A stretch of DNA of 64,000 nt from Naegleria gruberi (GCA_000004985.1 GG738888.1), one strand, 5' to 3'; shown: positions 6,800 to 57,984, numbered from the stretch's first letter. A program made the numbers and translations. The notes: generated from the sequence alone by a model not told the origin.

Positions 6800-8897
6800 A
6801 TGTTGAAAACAACAAATATACTCACAGAAGAAGTGAACGAGAAAAACACAAAAAAATGGATAATAACCCTACACTGCAGAATAGTGATGAGGAATTCTCA
6901 AGGAAGAACACAACCCCATGGAGTTGATGAAGAAAATAATGAAATATTGCCTTCTTCTCATCAAGAGAGGGAAGAAGAGCAGGAGAATGAGAAGGTTGTT
7001 ACACCACTGCCCAAGCTACCAATGATTATGATTTCTATGATTATTATATCGGAAGCTGTTGGGTATGCATTGTTGTATCCTGTGGTTCCATTCATGGTGA
7101 GGGACTTTCTTGTGTATGAACATCAGAATGTGGTGGCACAGAATCAGTCAATTAGTTCTTCAATGGTTGGGTTTTTACCTAATTTTGGATTGAATAGATT
7201 GTATCCGATTGCAACATTTGGAAATGATTTTAGAAATGATTTTGTGGAGAGATTTTCAGTGTTGAATAATGGAAATTTTACATTTAATTCTACATTTAAT
7301 TCAACATTAAATGGAACAGAGCCAATTTTTGAGATACCTGAAGAAACTGTTGGATTAATGATTGGAGCACTTTCGTCTGCATTTTCAGCTGCACAACTCC
7401 TTTCTAATTGGTTCATAGCTAGAGCTAGTGATCATGTTGGGAGAAAACCACTCCTATTGCTGGGTTTAGTGTTTAATATTATATTCATGAGTATATTTTC
7501 AGTTTCTAGGAGTTTTTGGTTTGCATTGGCGATTAGAATTTCACATGGTTTATTGAATGCCAATATTCCAATTTACAAATCCTTCTTGATGGATATTAGT
7601 GATTCTACTAATCAGGAAAAGGCATTTGTTATTATTTCAATTTTGGTAAGTTGATACTGATATAATATTTAATTTCTAAATGCTTAATTCTTCAAACATG
7701 TAATTACTTTATTGAATATTCAAACAGTGGAGTTGTAGTAATATTGTAACTCCAGGTATAGGAGGTTTTTTGGTAAATTTTGCAGAGAAATTTCCAGTTC
7801 TTTTCGGTGGAGAGCAATCATCTCTTTACAAATTCTTTAGTGAAAATCCTTTCATTCTTCCATTCTCAATTCCTGTATTGATGAATGTTGTTACACTTGT
7901 ACTTTCAGTTTTCCTTTTGAAAGAGTCCCTTGCCAAACGATTTGATTTTGTAAATTGGTTCAAAACCAAGTTGGGAAAAAAGAAGGAAAACATGGTGGTT
8001 GAATTGGTGGAAACTGCTGATAATCACACGATTGTGGACGATTCAAAGGATAATCTGATTAAATTATCAGAACATGAAACACAAGAAACTGGTGGTGGTA
8101 GCAAACCTAGCTCACAAAATAGTATGCTCATGCTTTTGAAAGATTCTACAGTTGTGAAAGTTGTTTCCCTCTATCTCTTCTTGGGTATTTTTACTAATTT
8201 GGCGGATGAGCTTGTTCCAAGTAAGTATTTTCAATTAATCACTGGATCTTATGCTAACCTATTTCAAGTTTTCTTCAGTAATTCAGTTAAAAAGAGAGGT
8301 TTAGGATTGGATTCACTCATAATTGGATTAATTCTTTCAGTTGGTGGTGTCACTTCACTAGTCATGCTAATTATCTATCCATTGCTTTCTAAAAAGTTTG
8401 GCTTTTTGTGGCTCTATAGAATCGGGTTAGTGATCTATGGTATCTCCATGTTGATCCTTCCGTTCTCCACTGAAATGATTCGATTTGATTTCATTTTCTG
8501 GGTGGTTTTGGTATTTGTAACATTCTTTATATTTATCAAGAGCTGCTCTCACTCAATGGTTTATACTTCTCAATTCCTGATGATTAATAATGCCTCTCCA
8601 TCACCAGAACATATTGGATCTATGAACGGATTGGGACATATTTGTGCATCGATTGGATGGGCTATTGGACCTTTCTTGTGTGGAGTATTAGTGGATGTTG
8701 GATTGAAATTTTCAAGAGATATCGAGACAGCAGATCCAGATTCATTCTTTGCTAAAGTTCCATTTGTTGACAAGTTGAGCTTTATTGTTTGTTCATTGAT
8801 TTGCTTTTTCAATTTAGGACTTTCGTTTACAGTACCCAAGTCGAGTGTCACAACAAGAAGATATGAAAATCCATCTAAAAAGATTGAGCAAGCTTAA
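6800..8897 (+). CDS. Major facilitator superfamily (MFS) transporter, 2 exons: 6800(or Met at 6887)..7645 and 7728..8897
   Basis: Two track ORFs (6800..7654, 7770..8897) joined by an 82-nt intron: donor TTG|GTAAGT at 7646, acceptor AAACAG| at 7727, frames match. Twelve-helix-type hydrophobic profile. MFS loop motif GRKPLLLLGL between TM2/TM3 and WAIGPFLCG-like motif in the C-terminal half. Start codon ambiguous. Confidence 0.6.
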
Positions 8898-8955
8898 GGA
8901 ATGACAATATATTTAAACAGTATAGTTATCAAAAGGAACTAAATTTAATAGTAAT

Positions 8956-11900
8956 TTATTCGAAACGTTCCAACATTAATTCCAACTTGGTCAAAATTTC
9001 ATCAATGGTTGGTCTTTCTTTTGGATCTTTTCTCCATGCCCGTTTAATTAATTCTGTAATTTCATAAATTATTTCATAACAGTTAACATGTGAATTATTC
9101 GTTTCAGACAGGAATTCCCCACACCACTCTCTACATTCACCAATATCTGAGAATGGAATTATTGGTCTCAGATCTCCCTCACAGATACTCTTATGGAAAT
9201 GGTAAGTACTATTAAATGTATTTGCTTTTGATAACTTTAACTTTTTTAGAACTTTTGAATCGGTACTTTGATAAGGTTCCATAATTTCGAATAAAAGTTG
9301 CCACATAATTATGGACAAACTATAGATATCTATTGATCTAGCATCATCTCTTCCAATTTCACCTGAAAATAGCTCAGGACTCATGTAATTAAAAGTTCCA
9401 ATTTGTGAAGTAACTGCTGACATGGTATGAGAAGAGAATGCTCTTCCTAAACCAAAATCAGCCAATTTGGCAGTTCCATTTTTATCCAACAGAATATTTG
9501 CAGGTTTCAAATCTCTAAATAAAATTAAATTATGTTAATCCTCTTCTTAGAAAACTTACCTGTGAACAATATAATTTGGTTCCAAATGATGAAGATAATT
9601 AATACCACTTGCGACATTGACCAAAATCTCAAGTTTTTGTTTCAACGAACACTTTAAATAACCTCTTTGCAAAGAAGCAATTAAATTTTCCAAACTCTTA
9701 TCCATACATTCCATACATATAAATCTCTTTGTTGGGGTGGATGAAACTCCGTAAAATGAAATAATATTGGGATTTCTTAAATTGCTTAATAGAATTGCCT
9801 CATTCTTGAAATCATTTTCTGAAATATCCATATTATTCAAATCGAATACTTTGACAGCAACTAACATGCCATGGTATCTGGTTTGGAAAACACATCCAAT
9901 TCCTCCTTCTCCCAGTCTCTGAATAGGTTGATAATATTCAGCAATATTTGAAAACTTACTCTTATTGGTTTATCCATATTTAATTGCTCAATTGGAATTA
10001 TAAACTTATTCTCCTCATCAGAGCTATGATGTGAATCAATATTTGTAGAATCGTACAATTCAGTTTGTGTCAGTAATCTTTCGTCCAATTTGAGATCAGT
10101 ATTAATAATCCTTTTGTATTTTTTGAAAATGAAAATCAAGATGATTGAAATAATTGAGATAATTACTGTAAAGAATCCAACCAATCCAAGTACTACTCCT
10201 AACACTATAATATTACTTTCACAATTCTCTCCATTGAATCCTTCTTTACATTGACAAGTATTGTATTTAACACATTTTCCATTTTCACTACATGCCTTTG
10301 ATCCAGATTCTCCAAAACAAATTGGAATTTCACAATTAGATCCCTTGTATCCATTCTTACATTCACAAACATTTGGTGAAATACATGAACCATTCGAAGA
10401 ACAAACACTTGATTGATCACTTGAGATGCCAAAACATATTGGTACTTTACATTCCATTCCACTATATGCTGAGCTACATTCACACTTGTTAAAATTAATA
10501 CATGTTCCATTTCCATAATTGCAAGAGTGACTCTCATTGGCAGCTTTTCCAAAACACACTGGAATGCACTCGACCATATTCGTACTGAGAATGAAACCTT
10601 CCTGACAATAGGGCTTCATCTTTTGTATAATGTTAAGTTTGGAATCTGCAACATAAATTTCTCCCTTTCCATCATTCGAGAATGAAATTCCTTCTGGAAT
10701 TCCCAATGAAACATCATTTGCTGGTGATTCCTTTAATGAATAAGAAGATCCTTTTCCACCTCCAGCTATTGTTGAAATTATTCCATTTCGAATTCGTCTA
10801 ATACGATAGTTTTTAGAATCTGAAAAGACAATGTCTTCGTATGGAGAAATAATTTTCAAATAAGTGGGTGAATTAATTTGTGCCTTAATTGCCAAATCCT
10901 CATCTCCAGAAAAGCCTGCAATTCCATTTCCCGCCAAGGTTGATATAGTGCCATTTTTGTGAATAACTCTGATTCTGTGATTATTTGTATCTGAAAATAT
11001 GAGATTTCCTGTCGATTCTGAATAAACAATGCCTGAAGGATATGCTAAGGATGCTTGTGTAGCATAAATATTATCCAAGTTAAACCCATAGCCTCCATTT
11101 CCAGCTATTGTCGAAATAATTCCATTTCTAATTAATCTTATTAAATTGTTTTTCACATCTGTCAAGTAAATATCATTATTTGGAGCAACAGAGATACCAA
11201 GACAGTTTCCAATAGCATTTTCTGAAGGACCAAAGTCGCCAATTCCTCCTGCTAATGAATGAATGACATTGTTACCTGGATAATAAACTCTTAATCTATC
11301 ATTTCTATTGTCAGAAATTAGTACACGTTCTATTCCTCCTTCATCAACATACGAATGTACAAACACTGGCCCATTTAGTTTTGCCACAAGCGCATTTCCT
11401 CCATCTCCCTCTAAACCTGGAAACCCTGTTTGGCCTACCACAGTTCTAATAGTGAAATCACTTATTGAAATTGCTCTAATTTTGTTATTGAAAGTATCTA
11501 AAGTTCGATAATTATTAGAACACAAAGTCAAAGACAAAACCTACCTGCAATATAGATGGCTGTAACTCCAAAACTAATACTGTGAGGATAGAATAACTCA
11601 CTGTTAATTGCTGGTCCCTCATCACCTCCACTTCCATCAACACTTGATCCTGCAATAGTTTTCACAATGAAATTGGGAATTAATAATCTTATTCTATGGT
11701 TGAACGTATCTGCAACTAATATTCCCATTGTAACCGTAAAAACCACGTCCATTGGTGAGTTGAGTTGGGTTTCCAGTAGTAATTTACCATCACCATTAAA
11801 ACCTGGTATGCCTGTACCAGCAAAAGTTTTAACAGATTTGGTAGTTATTGAAATGGACCTTATCATGTGATTTCCTGAATCGGCAACATAGACATGTCCA

Positions 11901-13720
11901 TCTCCAAAGGATAGTCCTGTTGGACGATTAAAAGTACTATTCAATGCATGATCATTAATAGATCCCACAGTTCCTGGTTGACCAGCAAAAACAGAAACTG
12001 AAAAGTCTTGTAAATTAATAGCTCTAACACAATGATTATTAGAATCTGAAAATAGTATATATATATCCCTATTATCAATATCTACTACAGTGGTTATCCC
12101 ATATGGTCCATCAATACCATGCTTTTCTTTACTCGCAATAGTCGAAATAGTTCCATTCACTGTACTAATCATCAATACTCTATTATTATTTGTATCTGAA
12201 ATGAAAATTAACATATCACCCTTTTGTTGTAAGCTAGTTACTCCTGAGGGTCTGTTTAATACTGATGCCTTAACATTTGTCTTGATATCATTCAAAGATG
12301 ACAACTTATTTCCAAACAAAATGGAATGACTATTCATATTACTATTGTTGAATTTCACTAGAAAATTACTGGACCAATGGCTGATATCATTTGATACAAG
12401 TAAATTAGAATCCCTATCTAAAGCAATTGAATATGGATTTGAAATTACAGGTGTTGCCTTATAGAGTTCATTAGGAGATAATGGAATCAAGTCATTTTCA
12501 ATATTCTCTACTTTTCCACTCACTAGAGAATATCTGAGAATAGACGATGACCCAGATTCTGATATTAAAAGAGATGGATTTCCCTGATTATAAGAATAAA
12601 TTACATCTCTTGGAGATCTCAGAAGGAATGGTGCCTCCAATTCATTTGTGTTAAATACTCTCATTCCATAACTTGTCAATAGGGACGAAATAATTCCAGT
12701 TTTCAAATCAATTTGTCTTATTATACTATAGCCTATTAGCCACAATTTTCCTCTAATGAGTGAGATCGAAATATAATAACTCAATTGAGCATCAATTGCT
12801 AACCCAGAATCTCCCCTAGATCCCACAGTTGCATAAACTCCACTTATTACCTCAGAATTTACCTTGTTATTACCCTGAGAATCAATGGTAATTGTGGTTT
12901 TAAATAATTGATTATCTGGATATTGAGCGTGGTAGAATATTTCAATATTATTGTTCTGTGGGGTTAAATCCAATTCAAATCCCTGAATAAAACTTAAATC
13001 ACTTCTGCTCTGATAAAGAGTAGTAGTATTTCCATTCGAAAGTAACTTTCCAATACTATTATAACCAACAAGAAACAACTCATCGTTTGAATTGACATGC
13101 AAAGAGCTTATATCTGATTGTAGTGTTATCACTCGTGTTGTTCGTTGCCTTTCATCAATCATGTAAACTTTCTCTTTACCAAATATCGAATAGTAAATGT
13201 GAACATTCTCATTTGGACTACTCATATGAACAGCAAGTAAACAATTGGCAGCAAATTTCAATTCACTAAATGAATTAAATCCCTGTGAGGTAAAATCACA
13301 TGAATCTCCTGCTATTCTCTCTATCAAGTTGCTTGTCACATTAAATTTTGATAAAACACATTGTTTATCATTCCTACTTTCAACAACGTAGAAAATGTCA
13401 TGATGAATATTATTAATACTTGGTTGAGCAATGCATATGATATTTTCCAACAGTTTATCCACTCGTCCATTCGAAATATTCAATCTCATCAATGAAGAAA
13501 GTAAATCGGCTGAATGAAGTAAGTAAACGATATCTTCGGAATGTTGGAAGGATGGATAAACCTTTCGTATATCATAATCTAACCATGATGTGTTTTTCTG
13601 GCCGAATAGAGGTTGGATGGTGTATTTAACAGGTGTGTAGCCTGTTGATGATGCTGTCACAGTTGTCAAATAGATATTGATCAAAAAGCAGAGAAAAATC
13701 CAAGAGACGTATCTTTCCAT
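8956..13720 (-). CDS. Giant receptor-type protein kinase: signal peptide, long NHL-repeat beta-propeller region, EGF-like cysteine repeats, TM helix, Ser/Thr (TKL-like) kinase. 4 exons: 13720..11545, 11497..9960, 9918..9560, 9514..8956 (about 1544 aa)
   Basis: Track ORFs 11528..13720, 9861..11537, 9556..9867 and 8956..9510 join in-frame. Intron 1 is CAG|GTAGGT...CTTTAG| (47 nt). Intron 2 is AAGA|GTAAGT...TATTCAG| (41 nt), restoring the glycine loop LGEGGIGCVF...VAVK. Intron 3 is CACAG|GTAAGT...TTATTTAG| (45 nt), restoring HR|DLKPANILLD. Summed exon length 4632 nt is divisible by 3. N-terminus MERYVSWIFLCFLINIYLTTVTASS is signal-like. Many NHL-type motifs (e.g. YVADSGNHMIRSI, IYLTDVKNNLIRLI, IYVADSKLNIIQKM). 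Four tenascin-type EGF units (CxxGxxGxxCxxPIC). TM segment IIVLGVVLGLVGFFTVIISIISIILIFIF. Kinase motifs VAVK, HRDLKPANILL, DFGLGR, MSPE. Confidence 0.75.
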
Positions 13721-13958
13721 TTTTTTGCTCTTTTTTTGGTCAACTCCGGCGAATTAGTGGATCAGAAACAGTGAGCACAAGATCTGATGGAATGTGAACT
13801 TTCATTACAAGAATTATTATTTTCACAAATTAACATCCAAAAAACATATTCTACATCTACTGATTGTATCATAGTTGGACTGCATTTTACGTGATTGAAC
13901 AGAATTAATTTTGATTCATCTCCTCTTCAAATCATTCTCAACCAATTAAGTATTATGA

Positions 13959-15155
13959 TTAATTCAAGATGCATTTCTTTTCTTTTTTTAAACTATTTAA
14001 ATATTTAATATCTTTTTCAATCACTTGTTGTAATATTGAATTTAAATTTGTTTGATTACCAAACCTAATTAACTTAACACCTTCTAGAAATGCATTTTCT
14101 ATACCCTCACCAGTTTTAGCACTACAAATAACTATATTTGTATTTGTTAGTTGATACTCATTAATAATATTAATAATTTCATTTTTCAATTTATCAATTT
14201 CATTGTTATCAGTAATTAAATCCATCTTATTTAATGCAAATATAATTGGAATATCTTCTGAATCTCTGATTCTAATTAATTGTTCAACTAAGGTCTTACA
14301 GAATTCAGCTGAGGAAAAATTAAATAAATCGCAAACATTGATAAAACAATCACCAGTTCTCATATATTGATCTATTCATATTAAATTATTGAGATATTCA
14401 AATCAACTTACCCCTATCAAATTAAATGATAAACAATCACATTTCACAACTTACCTCATAGCTGAGTATTCCTCTTGTCCATCTAATTAAATTAATTAGG
14501 ATTATCAAGTTTAATAATTCAATAAATGAAAATACTAACATGTATCTAATATATCAAGTTCAAACACCCTTCCATCAAATTCAATATTTCTTCTATAATC
14601 ATCATAATAACTTGGATCATATTGATCTGTATATCTATTCTGAATAAATCTAACCACAATCGATGATTTGCCTTATATCAAATATAATTACAATAAAAAT
14701 TAGATGAATAACATACCAACACCACCATCACCTATCATTACAAATTTAAGGTAATTGTCAGTAAAATCTAAATATTTAAATTGTTTATATTTAATATATA
14801 AAGTTAACAAAACAATCCTTTTTAAATTTGTTTTTTTAATTATTTGTTCCTTAATTATTTCATTATTCACTTTTATTGGTAAATAATTTTTCAATAACTC
14901 AAAATAAAATTCATTAAAATAATCACATTGATCATCATCGTACATTAATTTTTTACAACTTGTTTGAAAATTTAATAATTGTTTAATTTTAGTTGTATAT
15001 TTAATATTATAAGAATAACTAGTATCAAGAACATATGATAATATATTTAAATGTATTTCCAAGGGTAAATTAACGAACGTATTTTCATTATTGAATGATC
15101 GCATTTTTTTTAATTTAATTAATAATAACAAAAGTTCATCAAAGTAATCTTGCAA
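13959..15155 (-). CDS. Ras-like small GTPase with about 140-aa N-terminal extension (F-box-like LPxEIxxxIL motif); multi-exon, one junction unresolved
   Basis: Exon 1 (15155..14717) ends in the P-loop KFVMIGDGGVG|GTATGT. Exon 2 (14671..about 14540) continues KSSIVVRFIQNRYTDQYDPSYYDDYRRNIEFDGRVFELDILDT. A 28-nt exon (14482..14455) encodes (Y/A)GQEEYSAMR (switch II DxxGQEEYSAMR). The last exon (ORF 13959..14363) has YMRTGDCFINV...NKMDL...CSAKTGEGI (G4 NKxD, G5 SAK). Reading GT-AG sites as printed gives a +1 phase conflict at the last intron and DTYGQ instead of canonical DTAGQ. Confidence 0.55.
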
Positions 15156-19571: not shown

Positions 19572-21413
19572 ATGTTTCCTGTTATTAAATTCCATTCCGA
19601 TATAGAATCTGCCATCAAGGGAAGAAAAGAATTTGTAACGCAGGTCGATGAAGGCTTCCGATTCATCAAATATAAATCCATCGTAGAGAATACATTTGCC
19701 GATCAATCGACCATGAAGGATATGACCGATCGGGAAAGGCTTGATCAATTAATTAGACGCGAATGTAGAGGAATTATCTTTGAAGAGAAGAGTAAGAAAA
19801 TTGTGTGCAGAAAATTCCACAAATTTTTCAATATTAATGAAAGAGTTGAGAGTAATATTGAAAAGATTAATTGGAAACGACCATTTGTGGTTGTGGAAAA
19901 GATGGATGGAAGTTTGGTTTCTCCAATTTTTGTTTCTTCAAAGAGGGATATTTCAGATATTCGATTTACAACCATGTTGGGATTTACTGCTATGGCCAAG
20001 AATATGGTTGCTGGATATATTGATAAGAATTTAGCGCAGAAGAATTTGAGAAAACCATTCTTGGAATTTTGTAAATATTGTTTGGATCAGGGTTGGAGTT
20101 GTAGTTTCGAATATACTGGACCACAGAATATTGTCGTGATTAAATATTTGGAAGAGAAATTGACTCTACTTGCCATTCGTCATACAGAGAGTGGTGAATA
20201 TTTGACCTACCAGGAAATGAAAGATATTCTCGATAAGAATCCAAATTGGCAAAAGGCAGTCAATTTGGTGAGCTTGTGGAAAGATTTCCCACAAGGAACT
20301 GAAGAACCTCAAAAACTCTTATCAGAAATTTATGAACAGAAAGGATTGGAAGGATACGTCATTCGATTCAATGATGGTGATTTCTACAAGGCCAAAACTA
20401 AATATTATATGTGTTTCCATGGAATTGCAGATAATTCTTCAGAACCTAACAAACAGGGATCTTCATCCATGTTCAGTGCTGAGAAAATTAGAGAACGACA
20501 CATTGTTAAGGCAATTTTAAGTGATGTGATTGATGATGTAATCAGTGGAGTGTTCTGGACTACTGAAATGAAACAAGTAGTTTCAAAATATCGAATTGAA
20601 TTGGAAACTAAAATTTTGGCCAAATTTGAAGAGGAAATCTGGCCAATCCTTAAAAAGGCAATTTCATTCTCAAAGAAGGGTGTTCCAAATGAGTCGATCA
20701 CTTCGAGAGTTATTTCTGGGAAATTAGCCACTACATTTACTGGTGATTTTATTAAGGATATGATTTCGAAACTTTCCAAAGAAGAAAGTTCAAAGAATTC
20801 GAATTACAAAAATCAAGAAAGTGACGAAGAAGAGGAAGAATTTGATTCGAAACCAAGTCAACAATCAAGAGGAAATATGTGGAGCGTTCTCCAAGAGGAA
20901 GAAATTGAAGATGCCGAGCAAGATGCCAAACTCGACAATGAATCAGATGGAGAAAAGGAGGAGAAAAAATTGGAAGAAACTATTCAGCAAACTTCCAATC
21001 TAGTAATAATTGAGGAAGAGCAACCAACCCAAAGTATTTCATTCGACATTTCAGGAATGAAATTTGCACCAATTAAGCCTACTGAGAAACCACAATCAGA
21101 GCAAGAACAAATCGAATCTCAAAAGAATGTTGCCTACGAATGTTACAAAATTTTCTTACAAACCAAGATTTTCCAAGTGAGCGAGCCAAAAGCATTCGAA
21201 ACTAAAAAGTCCAAAGTCTACGATTGGTTAAACGTCGATTTGAAATCTGGAATTATGGGAAACTATGCATTCGATAGTAAAACTGGATCCCTTGTCAAGA
21301 ATTCCACAAGAAAAGTATTGACCAAACCATCAGCCTCTTCATCTAAACATATTGAAGAGGATGATCACGATTTCTCCAACAGCAAGAATAAGAAGAATAA
21401 AAAACGAAAGTAA
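19572..21413 (+). CDS. Putative polynucleotide ligase/nucleotidyltransferase (RNA-ligase-like, KxDG motif) with acidic low-complexity C-terminal tail
   Basis: 613-aa ORF. VVVEKMDGSLVS matches covalent nucleotidyltransferase motif I (KxDG[SG]) of ATP-dependent RNA/DNA ligases and capping enzymes. Downstream segments (YVIRFNDGDFYKAKTKYY, EGYV) resemble ligase motifs IV/V. The C-terminal about 200 aa are E/D/K-rich. Family assignment is motif-based only. Confidence 0.35.
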   Translation: MFPVIKFHSDIESAIKGRKEFVTQVDEGFRFIKYKSIVENTFADQSTMKDMTDRERLDQLIRRECRGIIFEEKSKKIVCRKFHKFFNINERVESNIEKINWKRPFVVVEKMDGSLVSPIFVSSKRDISDIRFTTMLGFTAMAKNMVAGYIDKNLAQKNLRKPFLEFCKYCLDQGWSCSFEYTGPQNIVVIKYLEEKLTLLAIRHTESGEYLTYQEMKDILDKNPNWQKAVNLVSLWKDFPQGTEEPQKLLSEIYEQKGLEGYVIRFNDGDFYKAKTKYYMCFHGIADNSSEPNKQGSSSMFSAEKIRERHIVKAILSDVIDDVISGVFWTTEMKQVVSKYRIELETKILAKFEEEIWPILKKAISFSKKGVPNESITSRVISGKLATTFTGDFIKDMISKLSKEESSKNSNYKNQESDEEEEEFDSKPSQQSRGNMWSVLQEEEIEDAEQDAKLDNESDGEKEEKKLEETIQQTSNLVIIEEEQPTQSISFDISGMKFAPIKPTEKPQSEQEQIESQKNVAYECYKIFLQTKIFQVSEPKAFETKKSKVYDWLNVDLKSGIMGNYAFDSKTGSLVKNSTRKVLTKPSASSSKHIEEDDHDFSNSKNKKNKKRK

Positions 21414-21418
21414 ACGAT

Positions 21419-22723
21419 TTATGTCTCACTAAGTATTTCTGAATATTCACAATAATTACATATGTCTCTTTCATCCTCAAATACATCCCTAATATTTCTT
21501 CCATGTACGAGTTTTTCAATCACTTTCTTTCGAACAGAATCAAATTGGTTAATTCTATAGTAGACAAAAACTGCCAAATTATGAAATGAATAAAGGGGAA
21601 GCAATAATGGCAAATCGGTGATCAATAATTCCACCTTCTCAACTATTTCTTTCATAGCATGGACTTGCAAGTTTAAGTATTTAAATGTGGAATAAATACC
21701 GTAAAGGTGCATCAGTTCAATACTGGCATGTTTGATATGTTTTTGGTGGTTAGTGAGGCTCTTATTAGAAATCATGTTGTAGAGTAATTCTCTAACTGAA
21801 CATATTAGAGATATTGTAATTGGAGCATTTTCTAACGAAACACCATTGTTGATTGATTGTAAATCATACTTGTTGTCGTTTACGTAAACATCATAAAACT
21901 TGGTAAAGAGTTTCCATACTATTTTCAAGCTCTCCACATCATCATCTCCAGCTGAGATGTGGGACTCAATTTTGGAGGCAAGCATTTCAAATTTCATTTT
22001 TTTAACATTATCCAAAAGTGGATCATTTTGAAATTCCTTAATATATTGTAAATAACGAGAAGCCAATTCAACCTGCCCTTCACCAACTGCATATAAAGCA
22101 ATAAGTGATTTGGAAACTTTGGTACAAAGGTCTATGGGATGAGCCAATGATGAATAGTGTACAGACTCTCTAAAAGAAACAATAGAAAGCGCAGGTTGAC
22201 TCATTGATTGTTCACATAAACTTTGAACAACCAGAAGCAATGCCCTAACCGAATACTCCCTCTCCAACAAATCCACATTCAAGACAATTTCTTCCATCTG
22301 TTCCTTACTCAAAAAGTCAATTGTGACATCCACATAATCGTAGAAATAATTAATGATGGCACTTTGAATATTTCCTCTCACCAAACTTCTCTCCCTCTTC
22401 ATGAAAACTGTTTGTTGTACATGTGATTTTGGGAGATAGGGGCGGAATGTTTTTGTTGTTACTTCTATTTGTACTTGCATTGTTGAAGGAGCAATATTGG
22501 CCAATGTCTTATTCTTTGGACCTCTCTTAACTCGTCTCTTCTTTGGAGGTACATAGAGACATGATCTTCCTCTCATACTACATTCAGAACATGAGGGTTT
22601 TAAACGATCGCATGCAAGATGTGATTTTCTACAAGCTAAACAATTAATTTGTTTCGTAGATACAACTTGACTATCATTTTCCAATTCTACATCATATTCA
22701 TCATTCATTCCTGCATGCAACAC
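21419..22723 (-). CDS. Zn(II)2Cys6 (Gal4-type) binuclear-cluster transcription factor
   Basis: 434-aa ORF. N-terminal CLACRKSHLACDRLKPSCSECSMRGRSC is CX2CX6CX6CX2CX6C, followed by a basic linker (PPKKRRVKRGPK). The rest resembles the loosely conserved fungal middle-homology region. Convergent with the ligase-like gene; stop codons are 6 nt apart. Confidence 0.65.
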   Translation of the reverse strand: MLHAGMNDEYDVELENDSQVVSTKQINCLACRKSHLACDRLKPSCSECSMRGRSCLYVPPKKRRVKRGPKNKTLANIAPSTMQVQIEVTTKTFRPYLPKSHVQQTVFMKRERSLVRGNIQSAIINYFYDYVDVTIDFLSKEQMEEIVLNVDLLEREYSVRALLLVVQSLCEQSMSQPALSIVSFRESVHYSSLAHPIDLCTKVSKSLIALYAVGEGQVELASRYLQYIKEFQNDPLLDNVKKMKFEMLASKIESHISAGDDDVESLKIVWKLFTKFYDVYVNDNKYDLQSINNGVSLENAPITISLICSVRELLYNMISNKSLTNHQKHIKHASIELMHLYGIYSTFKYLNLQVHAMKEIVEKVELLITDLPLLLPLYSFHNLAVFVYYRINQFDSVRKKVIEKLVHGRNIRDVFEDERDICNYCEYSEILSET

Positions 22724-27108: not shown

Positions 27109-30100
27109 TTATTCCTCATCCTCTTCAACCTCAACAGATTCTTCATCGCTATTGTATTCGATTTTACCATCCTTACCTTCCTTTCTGGAACTGTAATCAA
27201 CTAGAGAAGGTACACTGGCACGAGCATAGCCAAAATTAAATACTTGGAAGCTTCCAACACCATGCAACAACATTTGAGTTTTCTCACCAATATCACAACA
27301 AGTCCAACCTCTTTCCAATGCCGATTTGACAACTTTTGCTTTGGCCCTCTTCTTTTCATTCTTCTTTGCTGATTTGTTCTTGGTTCCAATATTTCTGATT
27401 TCAGTAAGTGTTTTCTTTCTCTCCTCATTGTTCGGTTCTTTCCAAAAGTCTTCCAGACCTATTGGATAAATTCCCTCCATAGATGGAATAAAATAAGTAT
27501 GAACTGAAGAAGTAATATACGAGACAAGGTGAGTAGGTTTGCTCAAATTATGAACTCTATTCTTGAGCTCTTGTTTTGTTTGATTATTCCATAAACTGAC
27601 ACGTCCAATATGTTTCTTATCGTTAAATTCTTCCTCAATCAATTCAATTAGAATTTCAGCAACCTTAATCTTGTGTGTGGTAGACAATTCTCGGAGTGTA
27701 CTAAGGAATTCCTGTGGATTTTTAGAAAGTGTAACTAAGGCAGTATCTTTCGACTCTTGGTTTGAGAAGGATGTAATAATATCTGTATACTTTTGTCTGC
27801 TCTTTTTTGGAAGATTTTCCACTAATATTCTTAACACCTGTAAAATGCCTAATTTGCCATCATCCACAGATTTTATATCTTCTTCATCCTCCTCTTGTTC
27901 TTTCATTATAGAAACAACTTCCTTTTTAGTGTTATCTGGTATCTCGTCAAATAAAATATGCTCCAAGCTTTCCCTTCTTTCATCTGCTTTTTGAGGGTTG
28001 AACAACTCATATTCCAATACTTTTTCCATATATATTAATGCTCTGAGCATTGCAGAGTCATGTGGAGAGTAGACCTTATGTTCATATGAATATTCATAAA
28101 ATTGTCTAATATCATCATGAACAATATGGATTGATTCAATGTGAAGATAATTTGCAACAGCTAATATTGAAGAATGTACAATTCCATACCCAAGGGCAAC
28201 ATCAGAGTCTAATATCAAAAAGAAATAATCAGAAGGATTACCTTCGTTTTCTTCAATAGATTTCTTGTATCTTGCAACATACTTGCTCTCTGTTACAATT
28301 ACGAACATGTGGTGGAGATTGTTTGTCTTGGCATATCTTCTATCTGATTCATATATTTGAAGTTTGTAATTCTTTCCTCTAGGTCTTGTCAAAATAAACA
28401 ATGGTTTCAAGCCATTACTATTCAACTTTCTGATTGGACTTGAAACCTCTTCAACTGTTTTTGTGTTATAAGAGAGCAATAATTGCTTACTCGTTCTGTC
28501 AAACTTCACTAACAACTCATTGGCTTCTCCTTCGTGATCAACTTTTTTGATTGCTATTTGTTCCCTATTACTTTTTTTCAAATCAAAATCCATCAACTTA
28601 TCATTTGGAGCACAGTAATGTTTTTCTGCAATATCTTTCACATCACTACTCTCAGACTTTGGCATTGACAATATCTCTACATATTTACAAGGTTGAGGAT
28701 ATTTAGAGTTCAATTCTGTTGGAACTTGTGCATACTTGGCTGATTTACGCTTGTATTTTTCAAACAGCAATTTTACATTGTTATCCATTCCAGAACTGAT
28801 TTCTTTTAGTGATTCCTTGATTGCTTCAAAGTATGTCCTAATGTGCTCATGAAAATTACATAGACCAGAGTGTATTGTTTCAAGAAAATCGTCCACTTTG
28901 CTGTTGTCATTAATATCCAGTATTTTTACCAACTCTTTTACAACATTCGTATCTAACATATCACTGTAAGAAACACAGGTACTAATAATTGACTGTTTGA
29001 AAGAATTAGCTGTATGAGTCAGGAAGAGAGTGAAACTTTCCACAGTTTCTAAAAAATTCTCCATAAAAGTATTGAAATGATTGGACCAGTCCACTTGTTT
29101 TTCCTCAGATTTTAATCTTCTTCTGTAACTAGCACCAAATTTTTGGAGTCTTGCTGATATATCCCTCTTGTCGAACAAAAGAGCTATTGGAGATTCATAG
29201 AATGATATCAAACTATTAATAAGAGATGAAAGATCTCCTCCATATAGATAGTCAGCATCTGGTGAATAGCTAATTGTCAATTCTAAATTTTCAGCAAACA
29301 TTTCACATAATTGCCTTCTTACTTTGTTGAATTGTTTACAGAACTGTGCTGGGGCCTGATTTTCTTTAGGAACCTTAATGTTGGATAAAATTACAACTGC
29401 CATATCTCTTATCATACTGGCATTATATTCAATGACTTTCTTTCTATTCTTTTCAATGATATATCTGAATTTTTCAATAAATGAATCAGTTTTAGCGTTC
29501 TGAGGAGGGAAAAATGTTACTCCAAAATTATCCTCCAATGATTTTACAAAATTGATTTTGTCATCAAATTCAACTGGTGTTGAGTTTACCACATCCCTTT
29601 CTGACAACACAACACCTTCCAACAATATATCATAATGTAGAGCTAGCTGTTTTCTAAAAGATTTTTTCATACCCTCAATAAGCTCATAGTTATCCAATAA
29701 ATCATAGTATGTAGACTCAACTATATTTGGATTGTTACAGAGAATGGCTATGGAAGGTCTTATTACCTGACTAGGTTGATGAATTCCATATTCCCAAGCT
29801 TTTCTTACAATACCATCATCTAAGATATTTCTGTTATTTTCAATGCCCGATACAATTATGCAAGTATCTAGGAAGCTTTCTCTAATAAATTGCTTGTATA
29901 GTTCTCCCTCTGTCAATTCATCATAACCTGGCATATCCCTTAGAATTACTCTACTCTCTTTAAGGAATGGGCTAGGAACTTTTAGTACAAGTTTCTTTAC
30001 AGTCAAAGAGTCAAAAGTTGTTTTCTCCTTCTCATATTTTTCAATCACTTGTCTTGCTCTTGCAAGAATGCAAGAAAGTCTTTCAGTATCAGTATTGCCA

Positions 30101-31257
30101 CTCAATATTATATTTGATTGAGAGTCAATTTCAATATTTTCCAATTGTTTCTCATAGCTTAACTTTTTTCCTTCATTTTTTACATTCTTTTCGCGTAAAT
30201 TATACTCTTGTACGGTACACATTTCCTTAGTGAGACTGTAAAATTCATCATACATGATATCAATAACTGTACTAGTGATACCCTTTCCAAGTAAATAAGT
30301 GCCTGATGGAAGAGGATAATTATCACATTGGAAACCTGAAACCAATCTATTAATCATATATGATTTACCATAACCTGGCTTTGCAAAAAAAGAAACAACC
30401 ACTCTTTCATCAATTTTCTTAAGTATTTCCTGAATTCTTTCAATGTGCTCAGAACACATATTAGTGATTGCATTCTTTTGTTTGCAGAAATTGTCAAAAT
30501 ACTTTTTCACCCTTTCATAATCCTCCCTTTCTTCCTTGATAAGATTTGCATTCGATTCAAGTATTTCATCAAGTGGAGATTTAACCAAAAAGTTCAAATT
30601 AGTAGTAGAAGCTTTTCTGTGTTGTGAAGAAAGAGTAGGAGAATGAGAGGAAGGAATTGGTAATTGTTCAAGTTGAGAACTGGCACTTACTGCAACTGTT
30701 GGAAGTGGTAATAATGTGCTAGCAGCTGTTGTTGCATTAGAGGATGATTCTCCAGTCATCACCACATCATTATCTTCATCATTTACGTGATGATCTTGTG
30801 GTGATGGCAATGGTTTTACAGGTTTTTCCTTCTTTCTCTTCTTACTGGCAGATGATGACTCGGAACCCTTCTTCTTTGATGAAGAAGCAGCATCACTCTT
30901 TCTCTTCTTATCTGCCTTCTTGGCAGATTCTAATTGGTTGAGGAAGGAATGTCTCATACTCGATGGACCAAACATGAGTAAATTATCAAGAGTAACCAAG
31001 GCTTGTTTTCTTCCCTTTCCTTCTCCATTGATGAAATTCTTGATTAATCGTAAGCCAATAACCAAGTGAAGGGTCGATGATACTTGACTGTTCTTATCCT
31101 GAATGCTCACACGGAAGGGAAGTAATATGAGAGAAACAAAGTTCTTTCCAGCAGCTTTTCCATAAGAATCGAGACGAATTAAATGTTGTTGACTACCTGC
31201 AATGTTGTTATAGCTTGTTTCAGAGTGCTTGTGGCTCTTCAAACCGAGATGATGCAA
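27109..31257 (-). CDS. Large (about 1382 aa) P-loop GTPase-like protein, possibly dynamin/large-GTPase-superfamily-like; 5' exon structure unresolved
   Basis: Long minus-strand ORF with N-terminal K/S-rich low complexity. P-loop-like FFAKPGYGKSYMINRL, later LLGKGITSTV (G2-like T), and LRDMPGYDEL (DxxG; compare dynamin DLPG). Acidic C-terminal tail. Track ORFs 31239..31598 and 31679..31861 (same strand) may be upstream exons; the 119-aa ORF overlaps the 1382-aa ORF start by 19 nt in another frame. Confidence 0.4.
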   Translation of the reverse strand: MHHLGLKSHKHSETSYNNIAGSQQHLIRLDSYGKAAGKNFVSLILLPFRVSIQDKNSQVSSTLHLVIGLRLIKNFINGEGKGRKQALVTLDNLLMFGPSSMRHSFLNQLESAKKADKKRKSDAASSSKKKGSESSSASKKRKKEKPVKPLPSPQDHHVNDEDNDVVMTGESSSNATTAASTLLPLPTVAVSASSQLEQLPIPSSHSPTLSSQHRKASTTNLNFLVKSPLDEILESNANLIKEEREDYERVKKYFDNFCKQKNAITNMCSEHIERIQEILKKIDERVVVSFFAKPGYGKSYMINRLVSGFQCDNYPLPSGTYLLGKGITSTVIDIMYDEFYSLTKEMCTVQEYNLREKNVKNEGKKLSYEKQLENIEIDSQSNIILSGNTDTERLSCILARARQVIEKYEKEKTTFDSLTVKKLVLKVPSPFLKESRVILRDMPGYDELTEGELYKQFIRESFLDTCIIVSGIENNRNILDDGIVRKAWEYGIHQPSQVIRPSIAILCNNPNIVESTYYDLLDNYELIEGMKKSFRKQLALHYDILLEGVVLSERDVVNSTPVEFDDKINFVKSLEDNFGVTFFPPQNAKTDSFIEKFRYIIEKNRKKVIEYNASMIRDMAVVILSNIKVPKENQAPAQFCKQFNKVRRQLCEMFAENLELTISYSPDADYLYGGDLSSLINSLISFYESPIALLFDKRDISARLQKFGASYRRRLKSEEKQVDWSNHFNTFMENFLETVESFTLFLTHTANSFKQSIISTCVSYSDMLDTNVVKELVKILDINDNSKVDDFLETIHSGLCNFHEHIRTYFEAIKESLKEISSGMDNNVKLLFEKYKRKSAKYAQVPTELNSKYPQPCKYVEILSMPKSESSDVKDIAEKHYCAPNDKLMDFDLKKSNREQIAIKKVDHEGEANELLVKFDRTSKQLLLSYNTKTVEEVSSPIRKLNSNGLKPLFILTRPRGKNYKLQIYESDRRYAKTNNLHHMFVIVTESKYVARYKKSIEENEGNPSDYFFLILDSDVALGYGIVHSSILAVANYLHIESIHIVHDDIRQFYEYSYEHKVYSPHDSAMLRALIYMEKVLEYELFNPQKADERRESLEHILFDEIPDNTKKEVVSIMKEQEEDEEDIKSVDDGKLGILQVLRILVENLPKKSRQKYTDIITSFSNQESKDTALVTLSKNPQEFLSTLRELSTTHKIKVAEILIELIEEEFNDKKHIGRVSLWNNQTKQELKNRVHNLSKPTHLVSYITSSVHTYFIPSMEGIYPIGLEDFWKEPNNEERKKTLTEIRNIGTKNKSAKKNEKKRAKAKVVKSALERGWTCCDIGEKTQMLLHGVGSFQVFNFGYARASVPSLVDYSSRKEGKDGKIEYNSDEESVEVEEDEE

Positions 31258-54450: not shown

Positions 54451-54531
54451 GTTGAGGTGGCCGAGTGGTTAAGGCGCCAGCCTGCTAAGTTGGTGGAGAA
54501 ATCCGCGTGGGTTCGAATCCCATCCTCAACG
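54451..54531 (+). tRNA. tRNA-Ser (anticodon GCU), class II tRNA with long variable arm
   Basis: GTTGAGGTGGCCGAGTGGTTAAGGCGCCAGCCTGCTAAGTTGGTGGAGAAATCCGCGTGGGTTCGAATCCCATCCTCAACG. 7-bp acceptor stem GTTGAGG/CCTCAAC. D-arm GCCGAGTGGTTAAGGC. Anticodon loop CT-GCT-AA. Long variable arm. T-arm GGGTTCGAATCCC. Discriminator G followed by TTTTTT (Pol III terminator). Confidence 0.85.
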
Positions 54532-56589: not shown

Positions 56590-57984
56590 NNNNNNNNNNN
56601 NNNNNNNNNNNNNNNNNNNNNNNNNNNNNNNNNNNNNNNNNNNNNNNNNNNNNNNNNNNNNNNNNNNNNNNNNNNNNNNNNNNNNNNNNNNNNNNNNNNN
56701 NNNNNNNNNNNNNNNNNNNNNNNNNNNNNNNNNNNNNNNNNNNNNNNNNNNNNNNNNNNNNNNNNNNNNNNNNNNNNNNNNNNNNNNNNNNNNNNNNNNN
56801 NNNNNNNNNNNNNNNNNNNNNNNNNNNNNNNNNNNNNNNNNNNNNNNNNNNNNNNNNNNNNNNNNNNNNNNNNNNNNNNNNNNNNNNNNNNNNNNNNNNN
56901 NNNNNNNNNNNNNNNNNNNNNNNNNNNNNNNNNNNNNNNNNNNNNNNNNNNNNNNNNNNNNNNNNNNNNNNNNNNNNNNNNNNNNNNNNNNNNNNNNNNN
57001 NNNNNNNNNNNNNNNNNNNNNNNNNNNNNNNNNNNNNNNNNNNNNNNNNNNNNNNNNNNNNNNNNNNNNNNNNNNNNNNNNNNNNNNNNNNNNNNNNNNN
57101 NNNNNNNNNNNNNNNNNNNNNNNNNNNNNNNNNNNNNNNNNNNNNNNNNNNNNNNNNNNNNNNNNNNNNNNNNNNNNNNNNNNNNNNNNNNNNNNNNNNN
57201 NNNNNNNNNNNNNNNNNNNNNNNNNNNNNNNNNNNNNNNNNNNNNNNNNNNNNNNNNNNNNNNNNNNNNNNNNNNNNNNNNNNNNNNNNNNNNNNNNNNN
57301 NNNNNNNNNNNNNNNNNNNNNNNNNNNNNNNNNNNNNNNNNNNNNNNNNNNNNNNNNNNNNNNNNNNNNNNNNNNNNNNNNNNNNNNNNNNNNNNNNNNN
57401 NNNNNNNNNNNNNNNNNNNNNNNNNNNNNNNNNNNNNNNNNNNNNNNNNNNNNNNNNNNNNNNNNNNNNNNNNNNNNNNNNNNNNNNNNNNNNNNNNNNN
57501 NNNNNNNNNNNNNNNNNNNNNNNNNNNNNNNNNNNNNNNNNNNNNNNNNNNNNNNNNNNNNNNNNNNNNNNNNNNNNNNNNNNNNNNNNNNNNNNNNNNN
57601 NNNNNNNNNNNNNNNNNNNNNNNNNNNNNNNNNNNNNNNNNNNNNNNNNNNNNNNNNNNNNNNNNNNNNNNNNNNNNNNNNNNNNNNNNNNNNNNNNNNN
57701 NNNNNNNNNNNNNNNNNNNNNNNNNNNNNNNNNNNNNNNNNNNNNNNNNNNNNNNNNNNNNNNNNNNNNNNNNNNNNNNNNNNNNNNNNNNNNNNNNNNN
57801 NNNNNNNNNNNNNNNNNNNNNNNNNNNNNNNNNNNNNNNNNNNNNNNNNNNNNNNNNNNNNNNNNNNNNNNNNNNNNNNNNNNNNNNNNNNNNNNNNNNN
57901 NNNNNNNNNNNNNNNNNNNNNNNNNNNNNNNNNNNNNNNNNNNNNNNNNNNNNNNNNNNNNNNNNNNNNNNNNNNNNNNNNNNN
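56590..57984. other. Assembly gap (1,395 N)
   Basis: Uninterrupted run of n. The X-only ORFs in the track across this span are artefacts. Both flanking genes (DENN on +, family copy 0 on -) run into it. Confidence 0.99.

Follow-up and report, generated by a model that had tools for sequence, protein, structure and literature searches.

A probable four-exon gene of Naegleria gruberi for an NHL- and EGF-bearing receptor-like serine/threonine kinase of an unnamed heterolobosean family

Eukaryotes have put together single-pass receptor kinases on repeated occasions, as in the plant receptor-like kinases (RLKs), the animal receptor tyrosine kinases, the transforming growth factor-beta (TGF-beta) receptors, and the transmembrane kinases (TMKs) of Entamoeba histolytica; the last are another protist lineage's own expanded set of single-pass receptor Ser/Thr kinases, with ectodomains of CXXC/CXC-rich repeats rather than NHL or EGF modules. 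Teneurins, type-II proteins that have a YD-repeat shell and a toxin-like C-terminus but no kinase, carry an NHL propeller and tenascin-type EGF modules in one ectodomain. The bacterial kinase PknD (Mbk) of Mycobacterium tuberculosis is a single-pass receptor kinase with an extracellular NHL beta-propeller sensor, the ligand of which is unknown (PMC1262709). The locus described here lies at positions 8956-13720, on the minus strand, of a 64,000-nucleotide stretch of the Naegleria gruberi genome (GCA_000004985.1 GG738888.1; hereafter the window), where an initial annotation had proposed a receptor kinase with an NHL and EGF exterior. It is very probably a real, intact four-exon gene for a type-I single-pass receptor-like Ser/Thr kinase of 1,543 aa.

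The four minus-strand open reading frames (ORFs) that had been joined in the initial annotation were all present, at 11528-13720, 9861-11537, 9556-9867, and 8956-9510, and the proposed joining through three short GT-AG introns restored an uninterrupted protein, as claimed. The spliced join 13720-11545 + 11497-9960 + 9918-9560 + 9514-8956 forms a 4,632-nt coding sequence (CDS) free of internal stops, which translates into 1,543 aa, not the 1,544 aa first given, followed by TAA. The introns are 47, 41, and 45 nt long and in phases 1, 0, and 2, respectively. Each had been said to sit where a conserved kinase or repeat motif is otherwise broken, and this also held: splicing rebuilds IYIA|DTFNNKIR in an NHL blade, PIR|RLGEGGIGCV at the glycine-rich loop (G-loop), and VHR|DLKPAN in the HRD catalytic loop, and the blade periodicity is regained once intron 1 is removed. 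The string GTARGTTTT occurs five times in the window, and three of the five are donor sites of these introns. The gene is organized as follows, with exon 1 drawn from the ORF list, the sequence, and splicing.

11545..13720, minus strand: exon 1, codons 1-725 and base 1 of codon 726; ATG at 13720-13718, signal peptide, N-terminal beta-rich domain, and NHL blades 1 to mid-5
11498..11544, minus strand: intron 1, 47 nt, phase 1, GTAGGTTTT...CTTTAG, inside an NHL blade (IYIA|DTFNNKIR)
9960..11497, minus strand: exon 2, NHL blades 5-10, EGF modules, transmembrane (TM) helix, and juxtamembrane segment, ending ...NMDKPIR
9919..9959, minus strand: intron 2, 41 nt, phase 0, GTAAGTTTT...ATTCAG, immediately 5' of the G-loop
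9560..9918, minus strand: exon 3, kinase N-lobe with alpha-E, running from RLGEGGIGCVF through NYIVH to the first two bases of R1358
9515..9559, minus strand: intron 3, 45 nt, phase 2, GTAAGTTTT...ATTTAG, within the Arg codon of HRD
8956..9514, minus strand: exon 4, catalytic loop to C-terminus (DLKPAN, DFG, SPE, and a C-lobe with a ~40-aa insert), with the stop TAA at 8958-8956

Independent support for this model came from an assembly in the European Nucleotide Archive (ERZ929261 / ERR1078381, PRJEB11402) that is filed as a metagenome and contains a Naegleria gruberi-like genome. The same locus is present there in a second isolate (L002), 99.2% identical to window positions 8268-14709, and its spliced CDS has no indels, with the frame and all splice sites kept; intron 1 is identical in the two isolates, and intron 2 contains two single-nucleotide polymorphisms between unchanged splice sites. 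The 37 exonic differences comprise 25 synonymous and 12 nonsynonymous changes, for a ratio of nonsynonymous to synonymous differences per site (pN/pS) of 0.13 (Nei-Gojobori, whole spliced CDS against L002) and a synonymous excess with a binomial p of 2e-9. The kinase domain has 11 synonymous changes and no nonsynonymous ones, and pN/pS is 0.31 in the ectodomain versus 0 in the kinase. The comparison shows that the gene is under purifying selection across its whole spliced CDS. That the locus is a pseudogene of this family, decaying or unexpressed, might be suspected from searches with the N-terminal 480 aa and the C-terminal 524 aa, neither of which found an identical annotated N. gruberi protein; however, the spliced frame of 1,543 codons is intact, the catalytic residues are complete, and frame and splice sites are kept in the second isolate without a single nonsynonymous change in the kinase. 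Because of the intact frame and the pN/pS of 0.13, a pseudogene is very improbable.

Paralogs bear on the introns in another way. In the same sample, a paralogous locus (L001), 38% identical over residues 804-1402, encodes NHL blades, five EGF modules, a TM helix, and a kinase N-lobe in a single unbroken ORF without introns at the G-loop and HRD positions, so that the spliced junctions of the window gene align gap-free to unspliced genomic sequence. At intron 2, the annotated N. gruberi paralog P0121 (kinase 58% identical) and P0122/L001 have the uninterrupted sequences MDKPIKRLGSGG and GKMKKLGSGG; the position of intron 3 is likewise continuous in L001 (IVHRDLKPAN), and P0121 is contiguous across both kinase junctions. 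L001 and a further locus, L003, are receptor-kinase paralogs, and the N-terminal domain has a counterpart of ~50% identity encoded in L003.

The locus could instead comprise two genes, with exons 1-2 encoding a membrane-anchored NHL/EGF surface protein, exons 3-4 a separate cytosolic kinase, and their fusion being artefactual. Such an arrangement would agree with P0121, the sole annotated close N. gruberi paralog, being a 303-aa kinase-only model from MDKPIK, with the TM protein bearing a 36-aa tail before a stop that results from read-through of intron 2, and with the outcome of a search in which metagenome contigs were scanned for exact matches to the cDNA sequence that joins exons 2 and 3, and none was found. 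Yet the spacer between the exon 2 frame and the G-loop is just 41 nt, with canonical GTAAGTTTT...CAG ends; exon 3 offers no Met upstream of the G-loop at which a separate kinase could begin; L001 encodes NHL, EGF, TM, and kinase N-lobe as one ORF; two Naegleria proteins described below, KAG2387484.1 and EFC46040.1, span both parts as single proteins; and the internal-Met start of P0121 looks like that of a truncated annotation. Given the short spacer, the lack of an ATG from which the kinase could be made on its own, and the single-ORF and single-protein homologs, two separate genes are very unlikely, and the locus is treated below as one four-exon gene.

Two side observations touch this junction. 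Retention of intron 2 would lead to a stop 36 aa on (...PIRVSFQILL...TMAC, then stop) and hence to a putative kinase-less, membrane-anchored NHL/EGF isoform, which is an observation on sequence only. P0121 is an N. gruberi "predicted protein" of 303 aa from another scaffold, kinase-only, and its start at MDKPIK, six residues before the G-loop, coincides with the position of the exon 2/3 junction of the window gene; it looks like a truncated annotation, from an internal Met, of a paralogous receptor kinase whose NHL, EGF, and TM exons were missed.

The spliced product was divided into the following regions.

13652..13720, minus strand: predicted signal peptide, residues 1-23 (MERYVSWIFLCFLINIYLTTVTA|SS), from a hydropathy scan, with V-T-A at -3 to -1
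12266..13651, minus strand: N-terminal family-specific ectodomain, residues 24-485 (~460 aa), beta-rich and predicted to be propeller-like
10626..12265, minus strand, span including intron 1: ten NHL blades, residues 486-1016 (~530 aa), from a motif scan and a blade hidden Markov model (HMM)
10215..10616, minus strand: Cys-rich region, residues 1020-1153, from Pfam EGF_Teneurin, EGF_2, and EGF_TEN and from Cys positions
10125..10211, minus strand: TM helix, approximately residues 1155-1183, followed by KKYKR (positive-inside), the only strong helix in a hydropathy scan
residues 1185-1238 (~55 aa): juxtamembrane segment
8959..9918, minus strand, span including intron 3: protein kinase domain, residues 1239-1543

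A Pfam run on the spliced product bore out the NHL, EGF, and kinase assignments of the initial annotation, returning Pkinase PF00069 (159.4 bits, cut-off 31.7, 1.5e-46, profile positions 4-259 of 263), NHL PF01436 (78.5 bits, cut-off 20, 2e-22), TEN_NHL (55.5 bits, cut-off 27.1), and EGF_Teneurin/EGF_2. The signal peptide and the single TM helix proposed at the outset were likewise recovered in the hydropathy scan, the former as an N-terminal hydrophobic, signal-like segment and the latter at approximately residues 1155-1183. The predicted topology is type I, which would place ~1,130 aa on the outer side of the membrane and the kinase in the cytoplasm.

The blades recur with a period of ~55 aa and the consensus LNxPxG...IY(I/V)(A/S)DxxNxRIRxI..NGxISTIAGxGxxGFxGDG, and by both profile and repeated blades the predicted product is a member of the NHL-repeat beta-propeller family. 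The extent first given to the repeats, about 1,250 aa, was too large, as the whole ectodomain ahead of the EGF region is only ~1,000 aa and the blade HMM finds ten blades over ~530 aa. Weak blade hints at residues 334-403, taken with the ten clear blades, would allow two propellers. Among solved proteins, the array is best matched by a teneurin-like protein (9ifo/9pt5, 1e-45), NHLRC2, SOQ1, and TRIM71, and the PknD sensor was not among the sequence matches of the NHL region. A bacterial origin of the array was considered; sequence similarity does not resolve it, because bacterial NHL proteins (~30-38% identical) and Naegleria paralogs (~30-33%) are about equally close. In the Cys-rich region, the 20 Cys between 1023 and 1151 divide into a 2-Cys stub and three 6-Cys modules, so that, of the four tenascin-like EGF knots initially counted, the tenascin/teneurin type stands and the number becomes three complete modules with a stub.

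The N-terminal domain (residues 24-485) had no Pfam match and is ~50% identical to that of the paralog P0252 (53% in a separate alignment). An AlphaFold (AF2) model built from a three-sequence alignment was all-beta, and its Foldseek matches were all beta-propellers, with no family nameable. Treating the domain as NHL was tried and dropped, as its similarity to the blades was insignificant with both the blade HMM (independent E-values of 0.014-0.36) and hhalign against the blade profile (probabilities of 10% and 2%).

The kinase is complete, as proposed, with GEGGIGCVF, VAVK, HRDLKPANILL, DFG, and MSPE all found. The catalytic residues (GEGGIG, K1261, E1278, H1357-R-D1359, N1364, D1377-F-G, and S1403-P-E, the SPE spanning 1403-1405) all match those of Arabidopsis CTR1 in a residue-by-residue alignment, and the domain is of the RD type, with a Ser/Thr-rich activation loop (S1385-T1398). 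By profile and catalytic residues, the product is assigned to the eukaryotic protein kinase superfamily as a predicted active Ser/Thr enzyme. Its best solved matches are CTR1 (2e-29), then SOBIR1, CERK1, TNNI3K, IRAK4, DLK, TAK1, BRAF, and RIPK2, all of the TKL group, with CDK1 close behind (4e-22). The TKL type named in the initial annotation thus agrees with the best matches, and because the CDK1 score is only slightly lower, membership in the group is likely rather than proven.

Relatives were sought with a profile of the EGF-TM-kinase part, built from window exon pieces, P0121, and P0122, against 1.84 billion representatives. Giant EGF-array proteins dominated the top of the list, and family members were therefore selected by the coordinates of the matching stretch and followed up with Pfam, our own domain scan, name look-ups, and BLASTP. 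The N. lovaniensis protein KAG2387484.1 (1,239 aa) has a signal peptide, NHL, EGF, TM, and kinase and is collinear with residues 443-1543 (30% identity, E 7e-125, BLASTP). NHL, EGF, TM, and kinase also occur together in N. lovaniensis KAG2389477.1, in N. gruberi EFC46040.1/D2VB11, which is 2,331 aa long and has a larger ectodomain with the same modules, and in several metagenomic proteins. These existing deposits mean that the architecture is not unique to the window gene. Other distal ectodomains stand on related kinases: an EGF array in N. gruberi EFC48302.1, a PMP-like region in N. lovaniensis KAG2383719.1, and RCC1 propellers in a Percolomonas protein (A0A7S1PI24, RCC1 and EGF) and on a JGI contig. 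The membrane-proximal EGF and TM are kept in most relatives; KAG2383719.1 shares the kinase, and an EGF module was not detected in it. Collinear BLASTP alignments across EGF, TM, and kinase were obtained for KAG2387484.1, KAG2387189.1, EFC48302.1, A0A7S1PI24, and the metagenomic members. All these relatives are named "predicted" or "hypothetical" protein in the databases. On these alignments and on the kinase tree described next, the window gene is assigned to an unnamed heterolobosean EGF-TM-kinase receptor family.

In a tree built by neighbour joining from 32 kinase domains (202 alignment columns, 100 bootstrap replicates), which is small, distance-based, and of limited sampling, ten kinases from Naegleria, Naegleria-like metagenomic sequences, and Percolomonas formed one clade with 100% bootstrap, with two JGI metagenome kinases and EFC48302.1 branching just outside it, unsupported. 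The plant RLK and receptor-like cytoplasmic kinase (RLCK) sequences (98%) and the bacterial Hanks kinases (85%) formed clades apart from it, and the nearest sequences to it were Raf-like and RLK kinases. NHL, RCC1, EGF-only, and PMP-like ectodomains are mixed within the heterolobosean clade, where, for example, one RCC1-EGF protein and one NHL-EGF protein are sisters at 100%. This pattern is consistent with one lineage-specific kinase chassis bearing shuffled ectodomains. It also supports, at the level of sequence, the suggestion of the initial annotation that the receptor kinase was independently assembled, apparently in the Naegleria/Percolomonas lineage, as the well-supported clade lies apart from plant RLK/Pelle and bacterial kinases and carries mixed ectodomains. 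Among the nearer relatives of the kinase profile is a TM-containing protein of Moumouvirus australiensis (AVL95162.1, P0388, "putative serine/threonine protein kinase receptor"); in the tree it falls outside the Naegleria clade, together with a kinase of Mastigamoeba and a Raf-like one from plants (94% bootstrap).

Compared with KAG2387484.1, KAG2389477.1, and EFC46040.1, the window protein is alike in its NHL repeats, teneurin-type EGF modules, single TM helix, and C-terminal kinase of the same clade, whereas its identity to them is 27-33%, as between paralogous lineages rather than orthologs, EGF numbers differ, and its ~460-aa N-terminal domain is missing from all three, being seen only in P0251 and P0252. 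With EFC48302.1, A0A7S1PI24, and KAG2383719.1 the kinase clade is common, and the distal ectodomain of those proteins is other than NHL. Against better-described systems the likeness is partial. PknD, like other bacterial Ser/Thr kinases with NHL sensors, resembles the window protein as a single-pass receptor kinase with an extracellular NHL propeller sensor, but its parts run in reverse (N-terminal kinase, TM, C-terminal NHL), its propeller has six blades, EGF modules are lacking, and its kinase is of the bacterial Hanks type; a PknD-like identity was rejected on the reversed domain order and because the window kinase lies outside the bacterial Ser/Thr kinase clade. Teneurins share the NHL propeller and tenascin-type EGF modules in one ectodomain, with the EGF nearer the membrane. 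No Pfam match to YD/Rhs or Tox-GHH was found in the window protein, and a teneurin identity was set aside for want of a YD shell or toxin module and for the predicted type-I orientation, opposite to that of teneurins. Plant RLK/Pelle kinases and the Raf-like CTR1 are similar in being laid out as type-I receptors whose Ser/Thr kinase is TKL-like (kinase identity ~30-35%), but plant RLK ectodomains are LRR, LysM, lectin, and similar domains as opposed to NHL and EGF, and membership in RLK/Pelle-IRAK was rejected as the plant RLK/RLCK clade, within limited sampling, excludes the Naegleria clade. No Entamoeba proteins appeared among the nearest kinases in the searches.

Several points weigh against reading the locus as an expressed receptor kinase of this build. 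The spliced exon 2/3 junction was absent from the metagenome contigs, as noted above; the signal peptide and topology were called by hydropathy heuristics alone; confidence in the N-terminal domain model is low (pLDDT 51); the C-lobe, by the CTR1 alignment, carries its ~40-aa insert before subdomain XI; the TKL placement is based on best matches and the small neighbour-joining tree; and a search of the literature on Naegleria NHL proteins, the kinome, and receptor or transmembrane kinases did not find a description of the family.

How such a protein might work can be inferred by analogy with plant RLKs, TGF-beta receptors, and mycobacterial PknD (PMC1262709). The NHL propellers and the N-terminal domain would bind an extracellular macromolecule, plausibly one from bacterial prey, the substrate, or another cell, while a rigid EGF stalk would hold the propellers away from the membrane. 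Ligand-driven oligomerisation would then let the cytoplasmic kinases trans-phosphorylate their activation loops (S1385-T1398) and subsequently downstream targets. The protein could alternatively be a receptor used as teneurins are, mainly for adhesion or scaffolding, between cells or between cell and substrate, with a kinase that is regulatory or weakly active rather than a ligand-gated switch. The teneurin-like protein as best solved relative of the ectodomain, the TEN_NHL and EGF_Teneurin matches, the faster evolution of the ectodomain than of the kinase, and the unusual C-lobe insert all point in that direction; however, every motif expected of an active RD kinase, catalytic or regulatory, is conserved and under the strongest constraint, the Pfam run showed neither a YD shell nor a toxin module, and the predicted orientation in the membrane is the reverse of that in teneurins. 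A mainly adhesive role is accordingly considered unlikely, and signalling by a ligand-gated receptor kinase is the preferred proposal.

Since neither end search gave an identical N. gruberi protein, a full-length model seems to be absent from GenBank, UniProt, and EukProt; a partial model over the middle exon may exist. A full-length word-based search returned only bacterial NHL proteins and is uninformative on this absence, because it missed the 99%-identical P0251. In an exact look-up on public contigs, the exon 1 ORF, one neighbouring ORF, and P0121 had no record. Elsewhere in the window, eight single-exon ORFs are exact N. gruberi proteins (EFC41091, EFC41020, EFC41021, EFC41023, EFC41024, EFC41028, EFC41029, and EFC41095).

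No paralog of the receptor kinase was found elsewhere in the 64-kb window. The gene is flanked by a major facilitator superfamily transporter and a small GTPase, with no functional link evident. The latter, the upstream neighbour at 13959-15155 on the minus strand, is Ras/Rab-like and spread over at least two ORFs, and GTAAGT at 14454 and 14411 suggests short introns of the same type. Further features of the window are listed below; the run of N in the last of them accounts for a GC content that falls to 0.10 at 56-58 kb and for the long but spurious ORFs listed across it.

19572-21413, plus strand: EFC41021/D2VQ00, with the UniRef name T4 RNA ligase 1-like N-terminal domain protein, a phage-type domain in Naegleria that could reflect lateral transfer
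21419-22723, minus strand: 434-aa ORF with a marginal match to a fungal-type Zn(2)-Cys(6) binuclear cluster (22.7 bits, cut-off 21), which may be unannotated, judging by accession numbering
27109-31257, minus strand: uninterrupted 1,382-aa ORF with no Pfam match at E <= 0.001
54451-54531, plus strand: tRNA-Ser (GCT) gene
56590-57984: 1,395 N, an assembly gap

The architecture itself was already known, in that it had been deposited publicly in hypothetical proteins, and the result is a sound gene-model catch rather than a new kind of system. As the same architecture is already on deposit and both ligand and function are only putative, the finding opens no long-standing question. What appears to be new is the window gene, apparently without a public model, the probable truncation of P0121, and a family undescribed in the literature searched. 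The locus documents a further independent assembly of receptor kinases, in Heterolobosea, with an unusual exterior of bacterial/teneurin-type NHL and EGF modules, and ectodomain swapping is clear among close relatives. It is possible, and suggested here only tentatively, that Heterolobosea built their own modular receptor Ser/Thr kinases apart from plants, animals, and Entamoeba, as an EGF-TM-kinase chassis with swapped bacterial-type NHL, RCC1, or PMP-like ectodomains, some of them acquired from bacteria, that may serve the recognition of bacterial prey or surfaces, and that the family is under-annotated in the N. gruberi reference, where the window gene would be missing and P0121 truncated. 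The apparent omission or truncation of family members in that reference bears on inventories of the Naegleria kinome and surface receptors, including comparison with the pathogen N. fowleri.

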